DNA of 64,000 nucleotides. Origin: Trypanosoma brucei (lineage: Eukaryota). This document shows positions 47,341 to 63,677 of the stretch, one piece after another (position 1 is the first letter of the stretch; each line of letters begins with the position of its first letter). The stretch is taken from assembly GCA_000002445.1 (NCBI GenBank), contig CH464491.1, positions 2,912,001-2,976,000 on the forward strand, in the 5' to 3' direction. The position numbers were made by a program, and so were the translations under genes. Under the pieces are notes generated by a model, which did no database searches, had not been told where the DNA came from, and was given only the letters and a program-made list of their open reading frames with translations.

Positions 47341-50300
47341 ATGAATCCGTTTATTTTACCGCCATTAGAGAGACCCGCTACTGGGGGGCCGTGGACTTCC
47401 CATGTGCGGCTGCCCCCGGAATCCGAAAAGATTTTGGAAACTATGCCCAAACGCCTTTTGCCAGCCATCGAAAAGAGTTACCTCTCGGCGAGTGTAAAAA
47501 AACTTAGTATATGGAAGCCGGAGCCTCGTTTTGAAGATATGATCGAGGCACTTGAGCGCCAGCAGCGCAAGTTGCGAGCGACGATTGGAGGCCGTGAGCA
47601 CGAATGCCGCTACCGTCTGCTCTGGCAGCACCAAGAAGAGAAGGTAATTATTGAGTGTCGAACTGAAGCGGCATCTGTATCCGAGCTGATGAGGCAGCGA
47701 GCGCGCTATTCCCAGAAGGTTCGGGATTTTGAGGCCCGCGGCCACGTTTTACACGTAGAGACGCTCACGCGTGGCCACATATATAAGTCGGAGGAGGATG
47801 CGCGAAAGCACATAGAATCACTTGAAGCCATGATGTCTCTAAAGGGGTTGCGACACAAGGCCTCACGGGATGTAGAATCAGCAGAGTCTATCCTGCATGG
47901 TTTATGTGACGTGCAGGAGTTCGAGAGATGTGTTGCCCAAGGTTCGTTTCACCCGTCAAAGATTTTCAAACCTGTAACATCGTTGATAATGACTCGCAAC
48001 ACCGGTACGGGTCATTATCAGGGTAGAACAGACCTTCTTATGGACTACACTGTTTGCGATGAGGAGTGTCGGGCAAGGGCCAGACTGCTGTTCGGCGAGA
48101 GGCTTGCACTAATGGACCTTTATTGCGAGCATAACGCGGTTGTGACGATAGCTGTGGAGGAGTCGTCCGCTCGTGCAGCAATGTGGCGCGCGTTTCGTTG
48201 GGGCAGGTGCCAGGCACGGCTGGAGGCTTTGCTTATAATACAGAGATGGTGGCGAATGTTACGTGTGAAACCGTGGTTAGTGCGACGTAAACAGGGTATC
48301 AGTGAGTGCTTTAGGAAGAAACGCTGGAAAATGACTGCATCTGACTACCATGCTTTGCTGTCACGCATGCGGCGGAGCCGCGCGCTGGTTGGTGGCCCGT
48401 CTTCTCTCACTGATATCAGGCAATCCATGGCTGCGGTAGAACGAGCGGCTGAATTGTCCCATCAATGGCTTTACGATTATTTTGTGTACACGTTGATGAA
48501 TCGAGCCGCACAACTGCATCGCCTGATTCAGCACGACCTGGGGATCCACTCTGTCGAAGAGTATGCTGAACGAAGCGCAGAAGAGGAAGATGAAGCCACC
48601 TCGTCGCTTCCCCTTTCATTGCTGCGGATGCCATACCGCGTTTTCGTTCGCATGCAGGCGAAGCAACCGTACCCTTCATGGCGTATCAATCGCTGGGTTG
48701 AGGGCTCTATCAGCCTCATGCGGCTTCAGGAGGGTCTTATGGCGGAAGAATCGCGGCTCCGTGATGTACTGCACGGAAGGGAAGCCCGTGAAACGGATGC
48801 GCTGAAGCTCTTTCAGTTTGTACTAAATAAAGGTGATTGGCCCTGGCGTTCGTTCTGTACAGCTATGCATTTCATTGTGCACGATGAGAGTATCGGGCGC
48901 GATCTTGTGGCAGAGAGTGAGCGGAATGCCAGGTCTACATTGTCCGTAGAAGAGGCCGCTGAGGCGTCACAGTATTTTACCCTGGAGAGTGAAAGGCTTT
49001 ACATTCTGCAGGAAGAGGCCCTGCGGCGAGAGGCCATTGAGAAGGAGGAGAGCACTGTGTTCGGTGATGCAACAGAAGGGGAGTGGCGTTGGGAGAATCT
49101 GTGCAAAACCCGGATGCGATTCGCAGCCTCTTGCGGCTGTGTCCTCCACTGGGAGCGGGAGCGGGACCGAGGTTTAGGGTCCAAACATGTTTCACTGGAT
49201 TCGGTTGCGCGTGTCATCACACGCTTCTTCCGCCGTGTTCAGCGACGCCGCAGGTTGGCCGCTGCCCGTTCCAAAGATGCCTCTGAGGAAACGCGTGTTC
49301 GGGAGATCGCGTCTGCCATGAAAAGGTTGTTGGAGGGCATTATTGAGGAGGACAAGCAGTTAATACCACATTACATAGCGCAGTTTGGGGCTGCCGCTAC
49401 CGCTGTTCTTTCCCCGGTTTCCACTAGTAGGGCCACTGAACTTTGTTCCCAGGCTATAGGAACCCAGGAAGACGCGTCCTATATTGACACTTCAGCCTCA
49501 CTGTTTAGCGAATGGTTTGATGCGCAGGCAAGTGAACCGATGGAGCGAAACTACAAGGAGATTGTTGCCCGGTTTATTGCCGCACACAAGGATCTATATA
49601 GGGACATGCAGCATCTTTTCTACATTGTGCGCCGGGTTAGGGAAGGTGTTGAGGAGTCTGAGTTGAGCGAGCGCATTGCATTGCAGCAAAGTGAGGCGTT
49701 TCTCCAAGTCGCCACCTACCAGGTAAGTGTTTGTGAGGAGAAAGGGCGATTGAAACTCGTTGAAGAGATTGAAAGTGCTCATTTGGACATGTGCGAGCAG
49801 TTGGAAATGCTGGGCGCTTTGGCTTGGTGCACAACTCCGAGTACTAGGCCTAAACCTTTCGTTTTCCCACTAACTAAGGCGAGGAAGGCGAAACCAGAGG
49901 TCACCAACGCGTTGCTACCACTTCCCATATACATGACAAATACCAATCGCCTCTTATGCCGGGAGGAAGTTACACGCGTCCGAATCGCTGTAGAGGAACT
50001 GAGGGAGTACAAGGCATATCTGGAGAACGCACACAACCTTCTGCATGACGATGTGGTGCGTGAAGAGGCTACTCAGCGCCTGTTGCTATGTGCTAAAGTG
50101 GACAACTATTACCCCAGTAATCCGCCTGTAGCCCAGCTTGCAGCGCTTGTAGAAGAAGAGACTCACACACGTATCCCGACAGAGGAGGAGGCTCTAGGCA
50201 CGTACAGTTCCCCTATGCTCCGATCTGTCTCTGAATACGCTGAGCACGTACTCTTCAAACGTTTCCTCCAGGGGTTCTTAAAGTTCTCGAGCGAGGCTCA

Positions 50301-50463
50301 GTACTTTGATCGCCATGTAACGGTGTTGCTCCTCCAGAGGGTTTCATTTCTTGGCAGTAAGCTTCGCGAGCTTTTGGCCATGGAGAGCTGTGCACGCGGG
50401 AGGTTGGAGTTTTATGAGGAACGATACCGTGACGCACTTCGCGAGGCATACTACGAGAAGTAA
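47341..50463 (+). CDS. Large hypothetical protein with IQ-like motifs
   Basis: The track start at 47089 is GTG. Candidate ATGs are at 47341 and 47443. IQ-like motifs 'LLIIQRWWRMLRVKPWLVRRK' and 'RVITRFFRRVQRRRRLAAARS'. The protein is helical and acidic. Confidence 0.5.
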   Translation: MNPFILPPLERPATGGPWTSHVRLPPESEKILETMPKRLLPAIEKSYLSASVKKLSIWKPEPRFEDMIEALERQQRKLRATIGGREHECRYRLLWQHQEEKVIIECRTEAASVSELMRQRARYSQKVRDFEARGHVLHVETLTRGHIYKSEEDARKHIESLEAMMSLKGLRHKASRDVESAESILHGLCDVQEFERCVAQGSFHPSKIFKPVTSLIMTRNTGTGHYQGRTDLLMDYTVCDEECRARARLLFGERLALMDLYCEHNAVVTIAVEESSARAAMWRAFRWGRCQARLEALLIIQRWWRMLRVKPWLVRRKQGISECFRKKRWKMTASDYHALLSRMRRSRALVGGPSSLTDIRQSMAAVERAAELSHQWLYDYFVYTLMNRAAQLHRLIQHDLGIHSVEEYAERSAEEEDEATSSLPLSLLRMPYRVFVRMQAKQPYPSWRINRWVEGSISLMRLQEGLMAEESRLRDVLHGREARETDALKLFQFVLNKGDWPWRSFCTAMHFIVHDESIGRDLVAESERNARSTLSVEEAAEASQYFTLESERLYILQEEALRREAIEKEESTVFGDATEGEWRWENLCKTRMRFAASCGCVLHWERERDRGLGSKHVSLDSVARVITRFFRRVQRRRRLAAARSKDASEETRVREIASAMKRLLEGIIEEDKQLIPHYIAQFGAAATAVLSPVSTSRATELCSQAIGTQEDASYIDTSASLFSEWFDAQASEPMERNYKEIVARFIAAHKDLYRDMQHLFYIVRRVREGVEESELSERIALQQSEAFLQVATYQVSVCEEKGRLKLVEEIESAHLDMCEQLEMLGALAWCTTPSTRPKPFVFPLTKARKAKPEVTNALLPLPIYMTNTNRLLCREEVTRVRIAVEELREYKAYLENAHNLLHDDVVREEATQRLLLCAKVDNYYPSNPPVAQLAALVEEETHTRIPTEEEALGTYSSPMLRSVSEYAEHVLFKRFLQGFLKFSSEAQYFDRHVTVLLLQRVSFLGSKLRELLAMESCARGRLEFYEERYRDALREAYYEK

Positions 50464-51243
50464 TGCCACCGTGTTTCTTAACCATGCTTTTTTTTAATTC
50501 TCCCCTTCCTGTCACTGTATCATTACGAACGAAGAAAAGGGGAAAGTGCCGCACATGTATTTTTATGAAATAAGAACCTATGTCATATAGCAGTAAGCCG
50601 TGGTAGCACCATGCCACGGAAATAAGTTTCACTATATGTAAGCGCTAACACACATATGCGCGCGAAAAGCAAAAAAAAAAAAAGAAAAAAAGTAGACGAG
50701 GAGAATTTTTAAAAAGGGTATATTTATTTAAGCATGTACCTAAGAGCGCACGGGCCAGACAAAGCATGAGTGCCAACACAGTTATCCGCACACACGCATC
50801 AGAAGGTACTGTTCTCCATTTTCTTCCATCAGGAAGCATGGTGTAATTATTTCTCACGAAAGTTGTACGACTAGTAGTACCCTTTTTCTCCCTTTTCTCT
50901 GTGGCTTTTTTAAAAGCTTCCTTTATTTTCTTTTTCCTTTTGAGCTAACTCTACCTCCGCAGCCGCCAGCGTTCTCAATGCAGTTTTGCGTGTAAGTCAC
51001 TTGCCTCTTGGCCAAGTAGACTCGATATGCAACACCAGGAGCGCCGCACGCATAACAATTTGCGTTTACGCGTCTACGTTAGTGTGCAGATGTTATGATA
51101 CTTTTGTTTTAACTTTGCTCCGCGTCCTTGGCGTTGGTATTGTTGCAATCTTTCATCGGCCAGTGCCTGTATATTTCAATATCCTCCTGCTTTTTATCCT
51201 TGCTACTGCCTCTGAAAACAAGGAATATCTGTCTCTTTGAAGG

Positions 51244-53274
51244 ATGACATACGAAGGCGCCATTGGTATCGACCTCGGTACGACGTACTCGTGCGTTGGT
51301 GTGTGGCAGAACGAACGTGTGGAAATCATTGCAAATGACCAGGGTAACCGTACGACGCCGTCCTACGTTGCTTTCGTCAATAATGAGGTTCTTGTTGGCG
51401 ATGCGGCGAAGAACCACGCCGCTCGTGGCTCGAATGGTGTTATATTCGACGCGAAACGGCTGATCGGACGGAAGTTCTCCGACTCTGTCGTGCAGTCCGA
51501 CATGAAGCACTGGCCCTTCAAGGTCGAGGAGGGCGAGAAAGGTGGTGCTGTGATGAGGGTAGAGCATCTTGGAGAGGGGATGTTACTGCAGCCCGAGCAA
51601 ATATCTGCCCGTGTCCTTGCGTACCTGAAGTCTTGTGCGGAGTCGTATCTTGGGAAGCAGGTGGCTAAGGCTGTCGTAACAGTGCCTGCATACTTCAACG
51701 ACTCGCAGCGCCAGGCAACGAAGGACGCGGGGACGATTGCTGGTCTGGAGGTGCTGCGCATCATCAACGAGCCAACGGCTGCTGCAATTGCCTATGGCCT
51801 GGACAAGGCTGATGAGGGGAAGGAACGCAACGTTTTGGTGTTTGACTTTGGAGGTGGAACGTTTGACGTCTCAATTATTTCAGTAAGCGGCGGTGTTTTC
51901 GAGGTGAAAGCCACAAATGGTGACACCCACCTTGGTGGAGAGGATGTGGACGCCGCACTGCTGGAGCACGCACTTGCTGATATAAGGAACCGTTATGGAA
52001 TAGAACAGGGCTCTCTGTCCCAAAAGATGCTATCCAAGCTGCGTTCACGGTGTGAGGAAGTGAAGCGAGTACTGTCACACTCGACAGTGGGGGAAATTGC
52101 ACTCGACGGGCTGCTTCCCGACGGCGAGGAATACGTGCTCAAGCTAACGCGAGCGAGGTTGGAAGAGCTATGCACGAAAATTTTTGCTCGCTGTTTGAGT
52201 GTGGTACAGAGGGCGTTGAAGGACGCTTCAATGAAGGTTGAGGATATTGAGGATGTTGTGCTTGTCGGGGGAAGTTCTCGGATTCCTGCTGTGCAGGCTC
52301 AGTTAAGGGAGCTATTCAGAGGTAAGCAACTCTGCAGCAGTGTGCACCCTGACGAGGCAGTGGCGTATGGGGCTGCAGTGCAGGCGCACGTACTTTCCGG
52401 TGGATATGGGGAGAGCTCTAGGACAGCAGGTATAGTGCTTCTGGATGTTGTGCCCCTTTCAATCGGCGTTGAAGTGGACGACGGTAAGTTTGATGTGATA
52501 ATTCGTCGGAACACAACCATTCCATACCTTGCGACCAAGGAGTACAGCACTGTGGATGACAATCAGAGTGAAGTGGAGATACAGGTTTTCGAAGGTGAGC
52601 GCCCCCTCACGCGTCACAACCACAGGCTAGGCTCCTTTGTTCTTGACGGTATTACCCCGGCAAAGCACGGTGAACCGACTATCACCGTTACTTTTAGTGT
52701 TGACGCCGACGGGATCCTGACCGTTACAGCCGCAGAAGAACTCGGGAGCGTAACAAAAACACTTGTTGTGGAGAACTCGGAGCGACTTACCAGTGAGGAA
52801 GTACAGAAGATGATTGAAGTTGCACAAAAGTTTGCCTTAACGGACGCCACCGCTCTGGCGAGGATGGAGGCCACCGAGAGGCTCACGCAGTGGTTTGACC
52901 GACTCGAAGCTGTAATGGAGACCGTCCCGCAACCATACTCAGAGAAGCTTCAAAAGCGTATTGCCTTTCTTCCGCACGGGAAAGAGTGGGTCGGCACACA
53001 GCTTCATACGTACACTGACGCGGCGTCGATAGAGGCGAAAGTAGCGAAGATTGAACGGCTTGCAAAGAGGGCCCTGAAATCGGCGCGTCGTGAAGGAAAG
53101 GATGGATGGGCACCGGGCAATGAGGACAATGGAAGCGGTGATGACAACGACGGTGACGATAACAGTGATGAGGACGACGAGCTCCAAAGGGGGAGGGGCG
53201 TGACAGAGGGATCGGGGAGGCCCCCGATAAGGAAACGCGACCGCATAGAGGCTATCAACGCAAACACAGAGTAA
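51244..53274 (+). CDS. HSP70.c: Atypical HSP70 with an acidic C-terminal tail (HSP70.c-like)
   Basis: Canonical HSP70 N-terminal signatures ('[12 protein letters not shown]', 'DLGGGTFD'-type '[10 protein letters not shown]', '[10 protein letters not shown]'), but a diverged substrate-binding domain and the tail '[15 protein letters not shown]'. No EEVD. Confidence 0.85.
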
Positions 53275-53686
53275 GTCGTAGAGGTGTCTAACGACCCCTT
53301 TACAATAATTTTTTAGTCCAGAAGTTTCTGAAGGTACCTATGCTTTCATTAAGGCTGCTATCATTACCGCTCTGTTATTCCCCTGTTCATCCATTCGTTA
53401 TACAACTTACTTTGACGAAATGTGTGATTGTTGAGCACGTTCTCTCGTCTTTCGTGATAACATACACATAGATGCATGCACTTGTATTTGTGAATGTCGT
53501 TGTGTGTGGCCGCGGTGTGCACATCCCCGCTCTACCGCAACATAACCGTGTATGTTTTTTATAAAATGGTTGACTTGTTTACACGTCCTGCTGTGTCTTT
53601 CTCTTACCATCTGCTTCACCTCTCTTTTCTGTGTTTCCCCCTTCCTTTCATGGAAATCGCCGGTAGTTTTCATTTATTTCGTGTAA

Positions 53687-54256
53687 ATGGTGTGGAAAGG
53701 ATCACGTGAACGAGGTGTTCAGGAGTACCGAAAGAAGAGCAAGGGGAATAAGCCCACCAAGGGTGAAAAGGTGTCGAAGAAGGGAGTTTCCTCCTCACGG
53801 CAGCCGAAACAGCGGGAGTTGTTATCAGCGAAACAACAGCAGCAGCAAAACAGGAAGAACGAGGAACTACGTGCGGCACTCGCTGGTGCCTTTTCCACCG
53901 AGGTATCCAGCAGCAACGCGGGCCCAGCGTTCGATGGATATGGAAAGGGTAGTCCTACTGACCGACTGCAGTTCGGTTACGCACCTGCTGTAGCTGCGGA
54001 AGCTGTTGCATATCACAGCACTATCTCTACTGATGCGTGGATTGAGGCGCGAAGGACGCGCTACCGCACGGCAATTGTGGAGCAGAAGAAGCTACGGAGG
54101 CCGAATTGTGAACCCATAACCTCTATACTGAAACTTCAGGGGCACTGGCGGAGCACTGAACTCTTTGAGAGAGAGGTTCACGGGAGCCACGCAGTCGCGC
54201 AGGACAAGGTGGACGATATTCTTGACACATTTGTTTCACGCCAACGTGTCGCTTAG
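53687..54256 (+). CDS. Hypothetical protein
   Basis: 189-aa ORF with an ATG start. Lys-rich N-terminus and a poly-Q stretch ('KQQQQQNRKNEE'). Confidence 0.35.
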   Translation: MVWKGSRERGVQEYRKKSKGNKPTKGEKVSKKGVSSSRQPKQRELLSAKQQQQQNRKNEELRAALAGAFSTEVSSSNAGPAFDGYGKGSPTDRLQFGYAPAVAAEAVAYHSTISTDAWIEARRTRYRTAIVEQKKLRRPNCEPITSILKLQGHWRSTELFEREVHGSHAVAQDKVDDILDTFVSRQRVA

Positions 54257-54574
54257 TTTGGGTTCCTGTTTATCACCTGGATGTTCACACAGGATCAGTT
54301 AGGTGACGTATCCTTCCTCCCAATACAGGCTAAGAAAAGAAGTCTGAAGTCCGGTGAAACTGACGGTGGAAATTTCTTATTAACGCTTATTCGCGTGACT
54401 TTTGTATGCCGGTTGTGTTGAGGGACGTTGAGCCCTCCGTCGTCATTCACTCATTGATTCTACCCCAGACTGAATGTTTTCTTTCATGTTTTCACCGTTG
54501 TTTGTTGTCCGAAGTTGAGTCCAGGGAGGGGGAACACGCGGTGGTAGCGAGTCCATTAGCGAAGGCGGCAAGTT

Positions 54575-56071
54575 ATGAACTCTGAAGAATGCACGAAGCG
54601 TCGAATTGGCATGAATTTTCCCCCGGTGAAGGATCGCGACGACGTTCTCAAAGCACAGAAGGGGGCTGTCACGCAGGAGCAAATTCGTGACGGCATGCAG
54701 GATGACACCCCTCCTGTGGTCCGCAGTGTTTTGGAATTGGCGCATCTGATGATGAGTGGGCACAGTCAGAAGCTGCGTGCGGCGCCAGGGTACCAAGGAG
54801 GTCTATTTTATTCCGGAAGCCCTTTCTGTTTCGCCAGTGGTTACCGCGACGGAACTCGGCCGCGCGACATGGATGAAAAAGGTAATCACATGAAACTGAA
54901 GGATCCCCTCACGTATGGTGTTCTTTCACTGCCTATTACGGCGGCGTACCTCTGCGAGTTACACGGCACCGGTGTGTTTGACTTGCACCAGCCCCTACGA
55001 CACTATTTGCCTGAGCTTGAACACAAACTCGACGCTGAAGTAACGGCGAGGAGCATTCTCTCCTTTAGAACTGTTCTTAATGAGCAGCAAATAATGAAAG
55101 ACGCGGGAGTTGACAGGGTGCGGCCCCACGTTACACGGAACATCTGCGCTGCAACGCAGCGCTATGTGTACATGCCAATAAACTGCTTTTTTGCAGGGGG
55201 GTCATCTGCGGCGCTCAGCGGGCAGGAGCAACGTGAAAATTTTGTACAGTACTTGCGCTCGTCACCTGCCTGCACGTTTAAGAAGGTCACTACTCATCGA
55301 GCTTACCGTTGTGGCGTGTCCCATTTCTCTGTAGCCCTACTCGTGGCAGCCGTTGAGCGGCAACTGGGCGGGATCAGCTTTGAAGCCTCAATCCGGAAAG
55401 TAGTTTTCGAACCGGCTCAGAGCCACGGTGCGGGGTACGGGCCACCCAAGCTTTGGCGTGACCCCAATGAAATATTCTACCAGCCGAGTGGTCTTGCACT
55501 GCAGCATCAGGGCTTTGTCAAACCGCTCGCTGCGGGTTCACTCGACAACTGTGGGCCGCCACTTTTGAACTCATCACTGAACCTTCACGCCCCCGTAGAG
55601 GATTACGGTAAATTACTCCTCCTATCTCTTGATGCTATTAGGCACGCGCGAAAGGAATTGGGTGAATTCGACTCTAACTCGGGGGCTATACCTTCGTACC
55701 CACATTACGACTTTGGCGTTGAGTGGTTGGACACTGGACGCAGACTTCAACTCACCCGACGAGTTTTGGGTATTGATTATATACCAACTGCATCGTCGTT
55801 CCGCTACAACTGCGAACACGACTTGGGTTGTTTTGGTATATGTAACTGTGGCACACGCGATGCATGTCTTCTTGGAAACACCATCTCGCGCGTCATCCAG
55901 CATCTTTTTGTAAAACACATCATTGAAAAGGGTGTCAACCCGATGAAGGGACCAAACCTCGACAACCCCAACGAAGGGGAAAGTGAAACGGAGCTGAAGT
56001 TCCGGAAGGTAGTAGACGAGCAGAAGTACACAAGTGTCTTCAAGAAACACGATGCGCATACACGATTTTAA
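54575..56071 (+). CDS. Hypothetical protein (498 aa)
   Basis: Long ATG-initiated ORF on the same strand. No confident domain; it loosely resembles a serine-hydrolase or beta-lactamase-like fold around 'LTYGVLSLPITAAYL', but the motifs are incomplete. Confidence 0.5.
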   Translation: MNSEECTKRRIGMNFPPVKDRDDVLKAQKGAVTQEQIRDGMQDDTPPVVRSVLELAHLMMSGHSQKLRAAPGYQGGLFYSGSPFCFASGYRDGTRPRDMDEKGNHMKLKDPLTYGVLSLPITAAYLCELHGTGVFDLHQPLRHYLPELEHKLDAEVTARSILSFRTVLNEQQIMKDAGVDRVRPHVTRNICAATQRYVYMPINCFFAGGSSAALSGQEQRENFVQYLRSSPACTFKKVTTHRAYRCGVSHFSVALLVAAVERQLGGISFEASIRKVVFEPAQSHGAGYGPPKLWRDPNEIFYQPSGLALQHQGFVKPLAAGSLDNCGPPLLNSSLNLHAPVEDYGKLLLLSLDAIRHARKELGEFDSNSGAIPSYPHYDFGVEWLDTGRRLQLTRRVLGIDYIPTASSFRYNCEHDLGCFGICNCGTRDACLLGNTISRVIQHLFVKHIIEKGVNPMKGPNLDNPNEGESETELKFRKVVDEQKYTSVFKKHDAHTRF

Positions 56072-56872
56072 TATTGTTACCCTGATCAGTTATAGGGAGC
56101 AGCGACGAAAGCAGGGGTAACGAGCTCAATTTCATTTTCGTGAGGCCTCTTTCCTCGTATGCCCAAATGAGCAGACACTGAAGAATGGTGTCTATTCCTT
56201 AGTTATAGCGTATCTGGGGGCTATAGTTTACTTTTACTGCGGCTGTGGTGGAACTGACAGCAGCCACGCTTATCCACACTATGCCCTTTTTTTTTCAGCG
56301 TGTAAGATGGAAAGAGATGCAACGGTAACGGATATCTCCACTGCCCTTTATCGTTTCAACATTACGTTTTGTATCCTTTTCTTTGTGTCAACTCCCCCTC
56401 TTTTCTTCCCATCGTTTGTAGCCGCCTTCCCTTTCATCTGAAGCTCTTATTTGAATGTCTGCGCGGAGACGCTGTGTATGACACCGCTCATCTGCAAAGT
56501 GGCGCGTTGCCCCTGAGGTTGTGGTGAGGTGTGCGGAGGTTTCGGGGTACTTGTGTAAGTCTGTATGCAGGTGTTGATACTGTAATCGCAAGGAGCCTGT
56601 GCGGAGCCGGTGGTGGCGGTGTTGAACGCATCAGTGGATGTGTTTCGCTTCTTTAACAGCCATCACAAGAATGGCTCATTGTCCTCTTTGTTACGACGGA
56701 ATGGTTAACCTGGCTGTCACCCCGTAATAATGGAGGTGGGATGTTGTTAACCTTTTGTTTTCACGGTGTCAAATGCTTCACCGTGCTATCGTTCTCAACT
56801 GGTCGTATCTCCTACGAAATTCTTCGCCAAACCACTGTGGTTGTGGCAATCTTCCTTGCACCTCGCGGCGCA

Positions 56873-56899
56873 TGTGTGTGAGTGTGTGTGTGTGTGTGT
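56873..56899. repeat. (GT/TG)n microsatellite
   Basis: 'tgtgtgtgagtgtgtgtgtgtgtgtgt' in an intergenic region. Similar shorter TG runs occur at ~11196-11215 and ~43546-43561. Confidence 0.8.
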
Positions 56900-57552
56900 T
56901 AGCACTCCACTGAGATGGCATTCGTGCCTGACTATCCGTCTGTTTGCACTGCCACTCGCGTGATTGTCAGCACAGCTTCGGGTTATCATGTGTTTTCTCG
57001 GTAGTGTGCAGTGTCCGAACTGGAGGCTGAAGAAAAAGATCAGCAAGGAACCAACTCTGTTCGGTGGGCGTCTAGTACTTTTTTCTCCTGTCTTAGTATT
57101 TGTTTCCGTTGTCATCACGTATGCTTGCACGTTTTAACCCCACCTTTTTGGTCGTCGTCGCCGTATGTCTGCAGGAAGTATCATTCTACAGCTTGCGGTA
57201 CGAAGAAACAGTTGGGGACACTGACCACTGGTTTAACGTGTAAGCTGGCCCTTTCTCTTTCATCAGTTGTGTTTCGTCAAAAACATTTATTACCCCCACT
57301 TCTTCACGCAACCGTCTTCGTTGCTGTATCTGCTAATATCGTTATTATTATTTTGCGTGAGGGAGTGGGACGTTTCGCTGCCCGTTCCCCCTTTTCCCTT
57401 TCCTACCACACGGAGCGAATGGTCTGTGGAGCGTGTGCACAGAACAATAATTTTAGCGGCGGTCACTTTTCACATAGAAAAATAGGCAACGGAAGAACAA
57501 AGTAAGGCGAAGCGACGGGAGAACGACGAAAAAAAACAAGAGGATAATAGAC

Positions 57553-58353
57553 ATGACGAGGAAAGTGGCCGGTGATATGTGGGACTCACGAGTAGAGGCA
57601 TCACTCCCTGCACTGAACTACCTCCGTACGGCACAACAATTGCAAAAGAAGGCGGACGAGTTAAGTCGCGCACAAGAGAGAGTACATAGGTTGCAAGAGG
57701 ACAACTCAGCACTACTGCTAGAGAATGAACTGCTTAAAAGAGAGCGTGACGCACTCCTTTGCAAAGTACAATTCTTAGAGTTAAACGAACACGGGCACTG
57801 CACAACAAATGATATAGTTGGACCCTGGGGAAATGTGAGATCCGTGCCCGCCGGCGGTCTTGGGAGCACCACAGGCGGTGATCTTTCGCCGGTGTTCAAA
57901 GATAATGTTAATAAAGCAAGTGAAACTCGTGTGAACATAAGTGAACAAGCCAGGACGCACACGAATAGCGAGCAGCAAGACCTTCATAATCCAAAGGAAG
58001 AAACAATATTGTGCCCTCTCTCAGCATCGTCAGAAACGTTAATTAACACCAACCGGCCAGATGCAAACATAGAAACATTCCATCGTAGCACAGAGTCTCA
58101 TGTGGAGTACTGCGCGAATGGTGAGTGTCGGTCACCTATCAGCATGACGAGAACCACACAGACCGTCGCTTACGAGCGTCGTGTTCCCTCTGTTGAGCGC
58201 GGCACCATGACAACAATGAACATTTACATTTGCTCGTACCAATCTTTGCCATCGAAAGCCGGTGCTTTTTTCGAGGTACCACTAAGCAACGTAGAAACGG
58301 CGATTCACCACGACCCCGAAAGTCTCACTAGCATCACAATCCCTCGCAGTTGA
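57553..58353 (+). CDS. Hypothetical protein with an N-terminal coiled coil
   Basis: 266-aa ORF with an ATG start. 'LQKKADELSRAQERVHRLQEDNSALLLENELLKRERDALLCKVQFLE' is a leucine-zipper-like coiled coil. Confidence 0.4.
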   Translation: MTRKVAGDMWDSRVEASLPALNYLRTAQQLQKKADELSRAQERVHRLQEDNSALLLENELLKRERDALLCKVQFLELNEHGHCTTNDIVGPWGNVRSVPAGGLGSTTGGDLSPVFKDNVNKASETRVNISEQARTHTNSEQQDLHNPKEETILCPLSASSETLINTNRPDANIETFHRSTESHVEYCANGECRSPISMTRTTQTVAYERRVPSVERGTMTTMNIYICSYQSLPSKAGAFFEVPLSNVETAIHHDPESLTSITIPRS

Positions 58354-59036
58354 TGAGAATGAGATGAAGAAAGACAAGACGCAAAAACCGTCTCCATATA
58401 ATAAACATAACAGTACCTTCTAGAACATGTGAAGAGAGGGACACGCTACTTCAAGGGGTGCTGCGTTATTGTTTAGCAGACCCAATACCATGACGATAGG
58501 ACATCACGATAACCTTGAAACAAAACTTAACCGACGACCTGTATAACAGCACACAATTAAAATGCAAAAAATAATCGGGACGACTGTCACTGCTGTACAG
58601 TGCGAAACATCACTTAAACAACACCTTTTGCAACCCATAAAGTAGGAACAGAGCAGTAAATGCGAAAGTACCATTAAAACATTACAAAAAACACTTTGGC
58701 AAGCAGATACTCGTTTACCTCGCAGGTTTAACGGGGAAATTTCAAAAGAAAAAAATTCCAGCGGTAAAAAAGGAAAAATAAATAAACACTGAAATCATAA
58801 TAAACCAAAAAAACTGAAAAAATAAAATTATCTCAACGAACAAAAAAGGATTAATTAATAAACACAAATTTTCCTTCGAATTGCAATACCTCCCCAGAAA
58901 GGATTGCGTACTCCCATACTTGCACTCCTGCTCTTCCTTCCTATTTGCATTTGCCCACGTGCCCCACGCGTGCATCACATAAGCATCAAGGAACAAGCAA
59001 CAGCTATAAAACAAGGAATATCTGCCTCTTTGAAGG

Positions 59037-61022
59037 ATGACATACGAAGGCGCCATTGGTATCGACCTCGGTACGACGTACTCGTGCGTTGGTGTGTGGC
59101 AGAACGAACGTGTGGAAATCATTGCAAATGACCAGGGTAACCGTACGACGCCGTCCTACGTTGCCTTCACGGACTCTGAGCGCCTGATCGGCGATGCGGC
59201 GAAGAACCAGGTGGCGATGAACCCTACGAACACGGTGTTCGACGCGAAACGGCTGATCGGACGGAAGTTCTCCGACTCTGTCGTGCAGTCCGACATGAAG
59301 CACTGGCCCTTCAAGGTCGTCACCAAGGGCGACGACAAGCCAGTGATCCAGGTACAGTTCCGCGGTGAGACGAAAACCTTCAATCCTGAGGAGATCAGTT
59401 CCATGGTACTATTGAAGATGAAGGAGGTTGCGGAGTCGTATCTTGGGAAGCAGGTGGCTAAGGCTGTCGTAACAGTGCCTGCATACTTCAACGACTCGCA
59501 GCGCCAGGCAACGAAGGACGCGGGGACGATTGCTGGTCTGGAGGTGCTGCGCATCATCAACGAGCCAACGGCTGCTGCAATTGCCTATGGCCTGGACAAG
59601 GCTGATGAGGGGAAGGAACGCAACGTGCTCATCTTCGATCTTGGTGGTGGCACCTTCGATGTGACATTGCTGACGATTGACGGCGGCATCTTCGAGGTGA
59701 AAGCCACAAATGGTGACACCCACCTTGGTGGAGAAGACTTCGACAATCGCCTTGTGGCTCACTTTACCGAGGAATTCAAGCGCAAGAACAAGGGCAAGGA
59801 TCTCTCATCGAACTTGCGCGCCCTTCGCCGCCTTCGTACGGCTTGTGAGCGCGCCAAGCGCACACTTTCTTCCGCTGCGCAGGCAACCATCGAGATCGAT
59901 GCACTCTTCGAAAACATTGACTTCCAGGCGACCATTACCCGTGCTCGTTTCGAGGAACTGTGCGGTGACCTGTTCCGTGGTACATTGCAACCCGTAGAGC
60001 GTGTGCTGCAGGATGCCAAGATGGACAAACGCGCCGTGCACGATGTGGTCCTGGTTGGTGGTTCCACCCGTATCCCCAAGGTGATGCAGCTTGTGTCTGA
60101 CTTTTTCGGTGGCAAGGAGCTTAACAAGAGCATCAACCCCGACGAGGCAGTGGCCTACGGCGCTGCTGTACAAGCTTTCATCTTGACCGGTGGTAAGAGC
60201 AAGCAAACGGAAGGTCTCCTCCTTCTGGATGTCGCCCCGCTTACGCTCGGCATCGAGACGGCAGGTGGCGTGATGACGGCACTGATCAAGCGCAACACGA
60301 CGATCCCCACCAAAAAGAGCCAAATCTTCTCCACATACTCAGACAATCAGCCCGGTGTGCACATTCAGGTCTTTGAGGGTGAGCGTACCATGACGAAGGA
60401 CTGCCATCTCTTGGGCACCTTCGATCTCTCTGGAATCCCCCCGGCACCCCGCGGCGTGCCACAGATAGAAGTGACCTTCGACCTAGACGCTAATGGTATT
60501 CTTAGCGTTTCTGCGGAGGAGAAGGGCACTGGCAAGCGCAACCAGATTGTCATCACAAACGACAAGGGTCGCCTGAGCAAGGCTGATATCGAACGCATGG
60601 TGTCTGATGCTGCGAAGTATGAGGCTGAGGATAAGGCGCAGCGTGAGCGCATTGATGCTAAGAACGGTCTTGAGAACTACGCCTTCTCGATGAAGAACAC
60701 TATCAATGACCCCAACGTTGCTGGCAAGCTTGACGACGCCGACAAGAACGCTGTCACCACTGCCGTGGAGGAGGCACTGCGATGGCTGAACGACAACCAG
60801 GAGGCCAGTTTGGATGAATACAACCACCGCCAGAAGGAGCTCGAAGGCGTGTGTGCTCCCATCTTATCAAAGATGTACCAGGGCATGGGCGGTGGCGACG
60901 CGGCTGGCGGTATGCCCGGAGGTATGCCCGGGGTATGCCCGGTGGTATGCCCGGAGGAATGGGTGGTGGGATGGGAGGCGCTGCGGCATCGTCCGGGCCT
61001 AAAGTCGAGGAGGTTGACTAAG
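59037..61022 (+). CDS. HSP70: Cytosolic HSP70 (canonical). As given, the reading frame is interrupted by a 1-nt deletion in the C-terminal GGMP repeat (~60931); the intact frame ends in EEVD at 61022
   Basis: Full HSP70 signature set: '[12 protein letters not shown]', '[12 protein letters not shown]', '[14 protein letters not shown]', the SBD and GGMP repeats. The '...PKVEEVD*' ending is in the +1 frame relative to the upstream ORF. The uncorrected ORF runs to 61109 with a nonsense tail. Confidence 0.85.
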
Positions 61023-61300
61023 TTCCCAGGTGTATTTCGGACCGGTGCTGCAGTCGTCTCATTGTCTACGGTGATGGTCCGCCGCCACATTTTCTCTTCG
61101 TCTCTGTAGCATTTAGGAACCCTCGTTACGGGAAAGATGCGTGACACATTGATGCTACTACTATTATTAATACTCTACTACTATTATTATTATTTTTATT
61201 TTAGTTCCCCACCACCGTCATTATTATTACCATTATTATTATCAATATTACCATTATTGTTTTTAATGTAATCATATATGTATATATTCTTTAGTTGTTT

Positions 61301-61327
61301 TATTTTTTTATTCTTTATTTTTTTTAG
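61301..61327 (+). promoter_or_regulatory. Polypyrimidine tract with an AG dinucleotide immediately upstream of the GCP-like gene
   Basis: 'ttagttgttttatttttttattctttattttttttag' ends 1 nt before ATG 61329. Confidence 0.35.
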
Positions 61328-61328
61328 T

Positions 61329-63677
61329 ATGTCTGACGGGGTGCAGTATTCAAAAGACGTTTTTCCTGCTCCTAAGTGGCACAGGGCGGAGGGTGATAGC
61401 GCTGCTAATAGGGAATGTGTGCAGCGTGTTGTTCCTTTTAAAGCTGTTTCTGCGGGGGAGAACGTTGATTCACTGACATGTGTTGGTGGTAGGCTTCCCT
61501 CTGTGGATTCTCTTTCCTCTCCTTTGGAGGGTGGGGAAATTGTGGGTAATGTTGATGATAAGTTAAAGCACTCTCATGTTTCTGTCGTTGATGATCGTCA
61601 ACCAGTGAGTTCTGTGACCGGAAGGAGAGGGAATAGTTTCGAACTTCCTGGCAGATTAATTGGTCGCAGGGATGGTAGTGGTGGTGTCGTTGGCAGTGGG
61701 AGGTTTGAAATTACTCCGTTGAAGCCATCGTCAACGATATCTGGAATCACACCTCGTCATTTTGACGTGCTGCATCCTTTGGAAGATAGCGCTGACCGTG
61801 GTAAGCATGATTTTGTAGGTGGTGTGTTGAATGCGGCGAATGATGCCGGAGGTGCGAAGGCCATTGAGGAGTTGGAGTTTATATCGGATATGTTGTTTAT
61901 GTGGATGGGTGTTGATAAAACGAAATATTTTGCGTATGATAACGCATGTTGTCGTTATGAAATGAACTCTGGATATGGTACCGTTCGTCAGAGGCAGGCT
62001 TTTTCTGCTTTTCAAGAGTGTGGTTGTCTGGCACATCAAATAGATGACGCTTTGAGGGGCGGTACGTCGGAAAGGTCGTTCTTGCAGCAAAGCCTTCGTG
62101 GAGCTGTTCGTCGGCACCTCTCACAGTACCACACTCTTGTAGCGTCTTTTCGCGGGCGGCAGACGCCGCCAATGGCATTTGGTGATTTGGTGGTTGCGTT
62201 CAAAAGAGTACAACCGAAACTTCGGGTTTTGCACACAATGCTGAAGGAAACAGAAAACGTGAAGGGTGGCGAACTGGCGTCTAAACTTCAACGTCTGGTA
62301 CAGCAGGGGTCAAGAAGACTATGCGCACTGCTGTCTGATGTGTATATGGAGGCTGTGAGTCCTCTCCTTCATATGACGGTGTCAAGCATTATAAAAGGTG
62401 ATGTCTCAGATCCATTTAACGAGTTCTTTGTGAAGTCCGATCCCAGAGTTGAAGATACGTCAGACACGTTTTGGTCTTCTAAGTTTTCCCTTCTGCCAGA
62501 TATGTTACCAACGACGGTGTCGTATTCGCTGGCGGAGCGGATCAGGCTTGTGGCTAAGAACGTCAGTTTCATTCGAAACTGTTGCAGGTGCAAGCAATGG
62601 CACATGGACCCCTCCATTGTTGCAGCCGCTCAAAGTGCAACATTTGATACGCTGGACAGTGTGGTTCGTGATGCCATGAGGTTCACCAATACTGCAGTGC
62701 TCCGACTGATTAGGGAGGAGTTCCACCTTGACAATGTTCTGCGTATGGTAAATGCCTTTCTTCTAGTCGGAAACGGAGACTTTTACGAGGTCCTTATACA
62801 CAAATTGGATCCCGTGCTTGGTAGGATGAGTCACATGGTGCAAACTTCACTGGTGCGCGACCACATGCAAAGCGCCTTGCTTGACATAACTCCGCACACG
62901 AAAAATTTGGATACGGATCTTTTCACGATGCTCCACTGCGAGATAGTTAAGGACGATAAAATCATTGGTTGGGATGCATTTGTTGTCACAATGTCGGTGC
63001 CCTCGCCACTCAACAATATCTTCGATGCCAGTGCCATGAAGGTTTACCGGCGCCTGTTTCGCATGATGTTCAAGGTGAAGCGGGCAGAAGTTGCTCTAAA
63101 AAACTCATGGAGGCAGAGCGTTGTTTTAGATAGGATCATAGGAGGGCTGCACAACGCGAAGCGGGAGACAACTGCGTGGCGGGAAGTGGCTGCTGATGCG
63201 CACCTGCTTGGTCTGCAGCTAAACCACTTTGTGAACAACTTATGGTCTTACCTTGTCGCAGAGGTTTCAACCGTTTCATGGGATCTGCTTATGCGAGCTC
63301 TTCGCCAGTGCAACTCCATGGATGACATCCGCGCAGCGCACATATCCTATCTGCAGTACCTCACCCTTCACTCCCTTTTGCACGGAGACTGTACTTCCAT
63401 TCGGCAAAATATCGAAAGCGTTCTCAGCGTAGTCCGACAATTCGTTGGAGCCCAGGCAGTACTGACTTCACTGCTGGAGCGCGGTCACGGTGACGTGTTT
63501 TCCATTAAGAACGAATACCAGAGGCTGGCTGACGACTTCCAACGTGAGATTTCCTCTCTATTAACCACGCTGGAAGAGCAGCATTTGCAGTTCGACTTTC
63601 TTAACTTCCTTCTTCTGCGTCTCAACTTCAACCACTTCTATCACGATAATGCATTCGGCGACAACACAGAGTTTTGA
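61329..63677 (+). CDS. Gamma-tubulin complex component (Spc97/Spc98, GCP family), putative
   Basis: The track ORF starts at 61278 inside a U-rich tract; the likely start is ATG 61329 ('MSDGVQY'). GRIP-like segment 'LIREEFHLDNVLRMVNAFLLVGNGDFYEVL' and the C-terminal 'FLLLRLNFNHFY', which resembles the GCP-family LDFNxFY ending. Confidence 0.6.
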   Translation: MSDGVQYSKDVFPAPKWHRAEGDSAANRECVQRVVPFKAVSAGENVDSLTCVGGRLPSVDSLSSPLEGGEIVGNVDDKLKHSHVSVVDDRQPVSSVTGRRGNSFELPGRLIGRRDGSGGVVGSGRFEITPLKPSSTISGITPRHFDVLHPLEDSADRGKHDFVGGVLNAANDAGGAKAIEELEFISDMLFMWMGVDKTKYFAYDNACCRYEMNSGYGTVRQRQAFSAFQECGCLAHQIDDALRGGTSERSFLQQSLRGAVRRHLSQYHTLVASFRGRQTPPMAFGDLVVAFKRVQPKLRVLHTMLKETENVKGGELASKLQRLVQQGSRRLCALLSDVYMEAVSPLLHMTVSSIIKGDVSDPFNEFFVKSDPRVEDTSDTFWSSKFSLLPDMLPTTVSYSLAERIRLVAKNVSFIRNCCRCKQWHMDPSIVAAAQSATFDTLDSVVRDAMRFTNTAVLRLIREEFHLDNVLRMVNAFLLVGNGDFYEVLIHKLDPVLGRMSHMVQTSLVRDHMQSALLDITPHTKNLDTDLFTMLHCEIVKDDKIIGWDAFVVTMSVPSPLNNIFDASAMKVYRRLFRMMFKVKRAEVALKNSWRQSVVLDRIIGGLHNAKRETTAWREVAADAHLLGLQLNHFVNNLWSYLVAEVSTVSWDLLMRALRQCNSMDDIRAAHISYLQYLTLHSLLHGDCTSIRQNIESVLSVVRQFVGAQAVLTSLLERGHGDVFSIKNEYQRLADDFQREISSLLTTLEEQHLQFDFLNFLLLRLNFNHFYHDNAFGDNTEF

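Follow-up and report, generated by a model that had tools for sequence, protein, structure and literature searches.

The GGMP repeat of HSP70 is one base short in the Trypanosoma brucei TREU927 reference, most likely because of a reference error in a collapsed tandem array

The canonical HSP70 gene in the reference sequence of Trypanosoma brucei brucei TREU927 is one base short in its GGMP repeat, and the deposited open reading frame (ORF) runs out of frame before it reaches the EEVD C terminus. TPR co-chaperones, STI1/HOP among them, dock to HSP70 through this EEVD tail. Because every other related assembly that we examined has the missing base, a T, the gap is most likely an error of the reference rather than a piece of biology. 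Judged by sequence comparison, the consensus of the collapsed TREU927 HSP70 array is probably wrong at this one base, and the HSP70 that the parasite produces is almost certainly an ordinary one that ends in EEVD.

The deposited HSP70 reading frame and the site of the gap

We analyzed a 64-kb stretch of DNA (here called the window), which contains one copy only of canonical HSP70. This locus is Tb927.11.11330 (old identifier, Tb11.01.3110) on chromosome 11 of T. brucei brucei TREU927. Its ORF of 690 aa equals the deposited HSP70 (XP_829198.1/EAN80086.1/Q383E5) in every residue, and four neighboring ORFs in the window are likewise exact TREU927 proteins. The features of the gene and of the frameshift site are as follows:

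59037..61109, + strand: HSP70 ORF as in the reference; 690 aa, the final 58 of them out of frame
59037..61021, + strand: expected HSP70 coding region with a T restored between 60931 and 60932; 1986 nt, 661 aa, 71.4 kDa, EEVD end
60906..60952, + strand: four GGMP units of 12 nt (60906-17, 60918-29, 60930-40 with 11 nt only, and 60941-52), followed by GGMGGGMGG to 60979
60931..60932, + strand: one-base gap; T (GGT GGT) in 9/9 other Trypanozoon copies covering the site, GG-GGT in the window
60943, + strand: polymorphism; T in TREU927, A in DAL972 and, judging from V636E, in the T. evansi clone
61019..61021, + strand: true stop codon TAA, right after ...KVEEVD
61022..61109, + strand: spurious ORF extension, being the start of the HSP70 3' untranslated region (3'UTR), also found in the inter-copy spacer of the uncollapsed array

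A preliminary description of this DNA had reported that one base is deleted within the GGMP repeat of canonical HSP70, with loss of the EEVD. The deletion is seen in the sequence, and both the reading frames and the 661-aa repair agree with it. The site reads GCT GGC GGT ATG CCC GGA GGT ATG CCC GGG GTA TGC CCG GTG GTA TGC CCG GAG GAA TGG, and TRF assigned the repeat a period of 12, 4.5 copies, and 4% indels. The Gly/Met/Pro-rich (GGMP) linker that follows the helical lid in canonical cytosolic HSP70 is therefore present, with four units, one of them 11 nt long, and what is missing from the deposited protein is the C-terminal EEVD. The protein leaves the frame at residue 633 of 690 and ends in ...RRHIFSSSL, with its stop at 61107-61109. 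This model has a mass of 75.4 kDa, and its shifted tail is basic (pI, ∼11.3). The out-of-frame continuation to 61109 was described correctly at the outset.

The frame one base behind the main ORF encodes 29 residues, including the EEVD, and then reaches the TAA at 61019-61021, so that the end of this frame, first placed at 61022, is moved to the stop codon itself. The third reading frame downstream of the site has an early stop. Inserting one base yields a 661-aa HSP70 with GGMP repeats and an EEVD C terminus.

Two further details of the preliminary description, which had placed a missing G in the second GGMP unit and thought of a homopolymer or repeat error, are changed as well. The broken unit is the third (60930-60940), units 1 and 2 lying at 60906-60917 and 60918-60929, and the nine copies from other assemblies that cover the site (see below) give a T between 60931 and 60932. 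The loss falls in the first glycine codon of unit 3, where CCC GGT GGT ATG has become CCC GG-GGT ATG. The GGGG at 60930-60933 is hence a product of the T deletion and not a shortened homopolymer. The T-carrying local form is CCCGGTGGTATG and the T-deleted form is CCCGGGGTATG; the next GGMP unit in TREU927 shares the identical local context, CCCGGTGGTATG, yet is read correctly.

The Pfam HSP70 domain (PF00012) spans residues 6 to 615 (E = 3.7e-260; profile positions 1 to 599 of 599), and since the frameshift falls at residue 633, only the disordered tail of HSP70 is affected. The shifted 58-residue tail had no Pfam match. A search with the C-terminal 130 aa, shifted tail included, gave no listed match reaching into the tail, at a sensitivity so low that the parent protein was not returned either; it returned distant short HSP70 fragments only, aligned to the part before the shift. 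TbHsp70 has been described with GGMP repeats and EEVD (PMC8269394), whereas the deposited ORF does not encode the EEVD.

HSP70 copies in Trypanozoon and other kinetoplastids

We aligned eleven HSP70 copies, namely, those of TREU927, DAL972, and OVI and eight of IVM-t1, the other assemblies being reached via neighboring genes. Nine copies other than that of TREU927 cover the site: DAL972 (Sanger), OVI (Illumina), and 7 of the 8 IVM-t1 copies (PacBio). All nine have the T, across three assemblies and three sequencing technologies, and among them the gap is private to TREU927.

The HSP70 on chromosome 11 of T. b. gambiense DAL972 contains a 100-N gap, with its 3' part intact. In T. brucei equiperdum IVM-t1 (CM010682.1), HSP70 is present in eight tandem copies that recur every 2417 nt. 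Of these, six are 661 aa long; another carries two deletions of a single C within C runs, which are probably long-read errors; and the last copy, of 657 aa, is without one 12-nt GGMP unit and stays in frame. The HSP70 of T. equiperdum OVI (CZPT02000771.1), also 661 aa long, is immediately followed by the same gamma-tubulin complex gene. The 661-aa IVM-t1 and OVI copies share their flanking genes with TREU927, but they carry the T and end in EEVD.

The gap aside, the TREU927 coding sequence differs from the other copies at 1 to 5 single positions. From the 661-aa copies of OVI and IVM-t1 it is separated by 1 to 2 single-base differences, all synonymous, and seven copies (six from IVM-t1 and that of OVI) encode exactly the repaired TREU927 protein. 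This bears out the initial view that the other frame holds the conserved C terminus of cytosolic HSP70. The repaired length equals that of T. brucei HSP70 gene 4 (UniProt P11145; Glass et al. 1986), which we take to be 661 aa with an EEVD end. The same 10-residue EEVD-type C-terminal ending is found in all eight kinetoplastid homologues that we inspected (8/8), and it is also the end of the repaired TREU927 HSP70. Because of this shared ending and of the identity to seven copies from sister taxa, the restored frame is not a product of chance.

Upstream of HSP70, OVI and TREU927 differ by 2 SNPs in 11.6 kb, which makes them nearly the same haplotype, and OVI carries the T. When 14.5 kb of flanks was compared between TREU927 and DAL972 or OVI, every other indel was intergenic, as determined by setting indel positions against ORF coordinates; the HSP70 gap was the sole coding indel. 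The T/A polymorphism at 60943 changes GGT to GGA, which is synonymous (Gly) in the EEVD frame and exchanges Val for Glu in the shifted frame. This points weakly to the EEVD frame as the one under selection.

These comparisons make it very improbable that all or most TREU927 HSP70 copies are without the T, in which case the main cytosolic HSP70 of this strain would have lost its EEVD docking to TPR co-chaperones. The consensus of a collapsed array would normally be expected to mirror the majority of reads, and proteomics databases carry the 690-aa model, but these databases merely repeat the annotation. All sister Trypanozoon copies and all eight kinetoplastid homologues keep the EEVD ending without variation, and OVI, nearly identical to TREU927 in its flanks, has an intact HSP70. 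Further, TbHsp70 has been published with the EEVD and as binding TbSTi1 (PMC8269394), and it is reported at ∼70 kDa from strain 927 cells (PMC6928772).

Another way to retain the EEVD would be recoding, in which a ribosomal -1 shift at CCC GGG G, or polymerase slippage, regains the EEVD frame. It is true that the EEVD frame is the -1 frame of the upstream frame and is open to the conserved stop. However, an in-phase heptamer of the form X XXY YYZ is lacking; the 0-frame is CCC GGG GTA (60926-60935, G CCC GGG GTA), and the tRNAs, once shifted, would be mispaired at first positions. For the 104 nt that start at the site, the minimum free energy (MFE) is -40.1 kcal/mol, and shuffled sequences fold about as well, with a mean of -39.2 (z = -0.28). 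A +1 slip on GGGG leads into the third frame with its early stop. The sister genes are single-frame genes from which the gap is absent, and therefore there is nothing conserved to recode. We rejected programmed frameshifting and slippage, finding no slippery site, structure, or conservation, and we regard recoding as effectively refuted.

Wider searches added little. An exact look-up of the repaired 661-aa protein in a collection of 15 billion proteins gave no match, but the collection is incomplete, given that identical genes exist in the loci that we fetched, and this negative carries no weight. Read-level assemblies (Logan) had no match to the 690-aa HSP70 or to the TREU927 gamma-tubulin complex protein and are uninformative both ways. 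A scan for the junction pattern found one unrelated Hip-like gene in metagenomes and nothing in bacterial and archaeal genomes.

The collapsed array and the origin of the gap

The collapse of the array at Tb927.11.11330 is already known from the literature. Droll et al. (PMC3616968) described the tandem HSP70 array as collapsed to one locus in the TREU927 assembly, and Gilabert Carbajo et al. (2025; PMC11858757) noted the same collapse and counted eight copies in Lister 427-2018 (Tb427_110128800-110129500). Two features of the window border the single copy:

58906..59036, + strand: 5' portion of the repeat unit of the array, the same as the IVM-t1/OVI inter-copy spacer; upstream of ∼58906 lies the unique first-copy flank
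61022..61229, + strand: 3' portion of the repeat unit of the array, (ATT)n runs included; the unique last-copy flank starts at 61230 and extends toward the gamma-tubulin complex gene

The flanks of the window HSP70 match the upstream flank of the first copy and the downstream flank of the last copy in the 8-copy array of IVM-t1. Homology to the spacer starts only ∼130 nt before the HSP70 ATG and diverges at 61230, and the core of the inter-copy spacer is absent from the whole 64-kb window. The combination of a first-copy 5' flank and a last-copy 3' flank with no spacer between copies means that an array of 5 to 8 copies was collapsed here. As a general matter, consensus errors are likeliest in a collapsed repeat.

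Our reading of the locus is as follows. The major cytosolic HSP70 is encoded by a head-to-tail array of ∼5 to 8 near-identical genes, which is collapsed in this assembly into one chimeric copy with the 5' flank of the first gene and the 3' flank of the last. The consensus of this copy is one T short in the third GGMP unit. As a result, the ORF leaves its frame at residue 633, overruns the stop at 61019-61021 into the 3'UTR, and ends at 61109, giving a 690-aa, 75.4-kDa model with a basic nonsense tail of 58 residues. The real protein of the parasite is almost certainly the 661-aa, 71.4-kDa HSP70 with GGMP repeats and EEVD. We infer that the gap originated in base calling or consensus building and not in parasite DNA. 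As for a specific cause, a context-driven Sanger compression is not an obvious one and did not convince us: the next unit, and DAL972 (also Sanger), were read correctly.

The preliminary description had left the choice between a homopolymer or repeat sequencing error and a real allele or array member. An error is now favored, given the T in 9/9 copies and the collapsed array; a homopolymer as its cause is not, and the allele is kept alive by one sequence from T. evansi. It had also proposed a comparison with other array copies. The window offers no other canonical copy, only the divergent HSP70.c, and the nine copies from other assemblies all have the T.

The T. evansi sequence, AGC92558.1 (L7WW52), which was deposited independently, stands against a consensus error, as it has the same shifted tail together with a nearby polymorphism relative to TREU927. 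This HSP70 of 690 aa shares the one-base frameshift, the 58-residue tail, and the downstream stop. It differs from TREU927 by three amino acids, V636E corresponding to the DAL972-type base at 60943, and this base shows that it was not copied from the TREU927 record. AGC92558.1 is a single cloned sequence and not a genome assembly. Speculatively, it may equally have been adjusted to match the TREU927 ORF, the presumed source of its primers. We also considered the UniRef100 label "n=6 Trypanozoon" on the 690-aa entry as support for the tail and rejected it, since UniRef100 merges subfragments as an established practice.

On this evidence, the T deletion may be real in one or a few array members (e.g., the last copy) of TREU927 and T. 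evansi and have been taken into the consensus, a reading that we hold to be unlikely while giving it serious weight. Such a member would encode an EEVD-less HSP70 with the basic 58-residue tail, or would be a decaying copy, beside a majority of normal copies. AGC92558.1 argues for it by pairing the same deletion with an independent nearby polymorphism. The copies at array edges do vary in the GGMP repeat, the last IVM-t1 copy being one unit short, and reads anchored in the unique 3' flank ∼210 nt past the stop would span the GGMP repeat, so that an allele of the last copy could dominate the consensus. Yet the deletion is absent from all eight IVM-t1 copies, from the OVI copy beside the same downstream gene, and from the 3' part of DAL972, and OVI is intact despite flanks nearly identical to those of TREU927. 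The variation seen in the sister array is in frame (12 nt) and not of 1 nt, and the T. evansi sequence may, speculatively, have been edited to the TREU927 ORF. The fuller version of this reading, in which at least one array member in both TREU927 and T. evansi carries a real T-deletion allele and yields a minority isoform with its EEVD replaced by a basic 58-residue tail translated from the 3'UTR, seems to us slightly more doubtful again. A consensus error in the collapsed array remains our preferred explanation.

Consequences for annotation and for HSP70 biology

A cytosolic HSP70-family protein truly without GGMP repeats and EEVD does exist in T. brucei, namely, TbHsp70.c (PMC3953656, PMC8269394). 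Its gene (Tb927.11.11290; 51244..53274) is the upstream neighbor of HSP70 in the window; it is 57.5% identical to HSP70 and shares gene-converted blocks with it. The two EEVD-less C termini are nevertheless different in kind: that of TbHsp70.c is an evolved, conserved, acidic domain, whereas the tail of the TREU927 HSP70 is frameshift read-through into the 3'UTR.

We found no mention of the frameshift in Tb927.11.11330 in the literature that we searched, and a literature search with a 14-residue tail peptide gave no matches. The flawed model can be followed through published masses. The supplement of a 2013 plasma proteomics study lists Tb11.01.3110 at 75,764.7 Da (PMC3738533). By our calculation, the 690-aa sequence bearing 7 carbamidomethyl-Cys weighs 75,765.1 Da and the 661-aa form weighs 71,693 Da; the listed mass is that of the 690-aa model, and the true C-terminal peptides were therefore unmatchable. 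A 2021 paper gives 76,002 Da for Tb927.11.11330 (PMC8682746), which again fits the 690-aa model. We considered whether the model had already been corrected in TriTrypDB and rejected this, as the 2021 value is still ∼76 kDa.

The coding sequence of Tb927.11.11330 has been synthesized for recombinant work (PMC6928772). The same group later described TbHsp70 with the EEVD and a TbSTi1-TbHsp70 far-western assay (PMC8269394), the recombinant sequence being unstated. A tagging study (PMC11858757) gives a junction PCR product of 409 bp and predicted masses of 98 and 101 kDa. These values fit a 71.4-kDa HSP70 that stops after the EEVD, which is circumstantial evidence for that form.

Anyone who synthesizes or amplifies the annotated ORF risks obtaining 58 wrong residues and no EEVD; the gene of PMC6928772 and the 690-aa T. 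evansi clone are examples of where this risk applies. A wrong C terminus matters directly for assays of co-chaperone binding, for antigen work, and for tagging at the C terminus, and the reference entry that holds the flawed 690-aa model belongs to a protein that ranks among the most abundant and most intensively studied in trypanosomes. Fixing or flagging the model would be cheap, and collapsed arrays deserve scrutiny. The biological weight of the finding is small; its value is that of an annotation correction, and the gap is ordinary as biology. If the deletion were after all real in an array member, there would be a minority HSP70 isoform uncoupled from STI1/HOP and other TPR co-chaperones.

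HSP70 copies in other Trypanozoon assemblies

In the HSP70 array of T. b. equiperdum IVM-t1, exactly one 12-nt GGMP unit was missing from the last copy (L010:7768-9741; 657 aa), which had three units versus four, and the repeat is therefore naturally variable, but in frame. The third copy (L003:16321-18304), for which there was no gene call, had lost a single C at two places, each within a run of C (aligned to window positions 60074 and 60437); this probably reflects long-read homopolymer errors and not a pseudogene. T. b. gambiense DAL972 had just one HSP70 gene (L002:11487-13306), with a 100-N gap in place of ∼166 nt and a called product of 572 aa; the array is likewise collapsed, and also gapped, in this reference.

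A eukaryotic but unrelated ORF on metagenome contig Ga0314684_10081078 (L012:960-1440) carried GGMP/GGFP repeats and a DP/STI1-like segment and likewise ended in GPKVEEVD. This ORF, which resembles a Hip-like co-chaperone, was matched solely because GGMP-encoding DNA fits the search pattern.

Haplotype and mosaic structure of the TREU927 copy

Three single-base marks distinguished the TREU927 HSP70 copy. Two were private to it (G at 59252, T at 61062), and the third, C at 60749, occurred otherwise only in T. equiperdum OVI; both coding differences are synonymous. Upstream of HSP70 (window 47553-59036, compared with L001), only 2 SNPs separated OVI from TREU927 over 11.6 kb, versus ∼90 SNPs for DAL972 and IVM-t1, and downstream OVI and TREU927 differed by 10 SNPs in 3 kb. 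From these SNP counts, OVI and TREU927 appear to have a common haplotype that changes near the HSP70 array.

The divergent upstream neighbor HSP70.c (window 51244-53274) shared four perfectly identical blocks with HSP70 (59026-59734), set in a background identity of ∼45 to 50%.

HSP70.c-identical blocks, in HSP70 coordinates (+ strand)
59026-59164, 139 nt
59238-59319, 82 nt
59429-59626, 198 nt
59691-59734, 44 nt

Such a mosaic is the mark expected if the cognate gene and the array had undergone segmental gene conversion with each other, as Lee et al. 1990 reported (cited in PMC11858757).

Downstream genes

The annotated start of the gamma-tubulin complex ORF was ATG 61278 (799 aa) in TREU927, DAL972, and IVM-t1 and ATG 61329 (782 aa) in OVI. 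In this stretch (window 61278-61331), the first 17 codons of the 799-aa ORF (MYIFFSCFIFLFFIFFS) lie in a polypyrimidine tract closed by an AG at 61326-61327. This arrangement looks like a trans-splice acceptor, and the true start is probably ATG 61329.

Past the window end, 3' of the locus, the long-read assembly of IVM-t1 had a 318-aa WD40-repeat gene in triplicate, arranged in tandem (L010:15092-18659), and DAL972 (L002:18655-19611) and OVI (L011:7595-8551) had one copy each. This difference reflects either a second collapsed array or real copy number variation.

AUU repeats in the HSP70 3' UTR

Three (ATT)3-4 runs were found in the HSP70 3' UTR.

(ATT)3-4 runs, window positions (+ strand)
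61183-61194, first run
61220-61228, second run
61232-61240, third run

The first run lies within the portion common to the 3' UTR and the inter-copy spacer, and a 3-nt indel at 61178 causes its length to differ among strains. The runs correspond to the AUU-repeat element that stabilizes HSP70 mRNA and to which ZC3H11 binds (PMC3616968).
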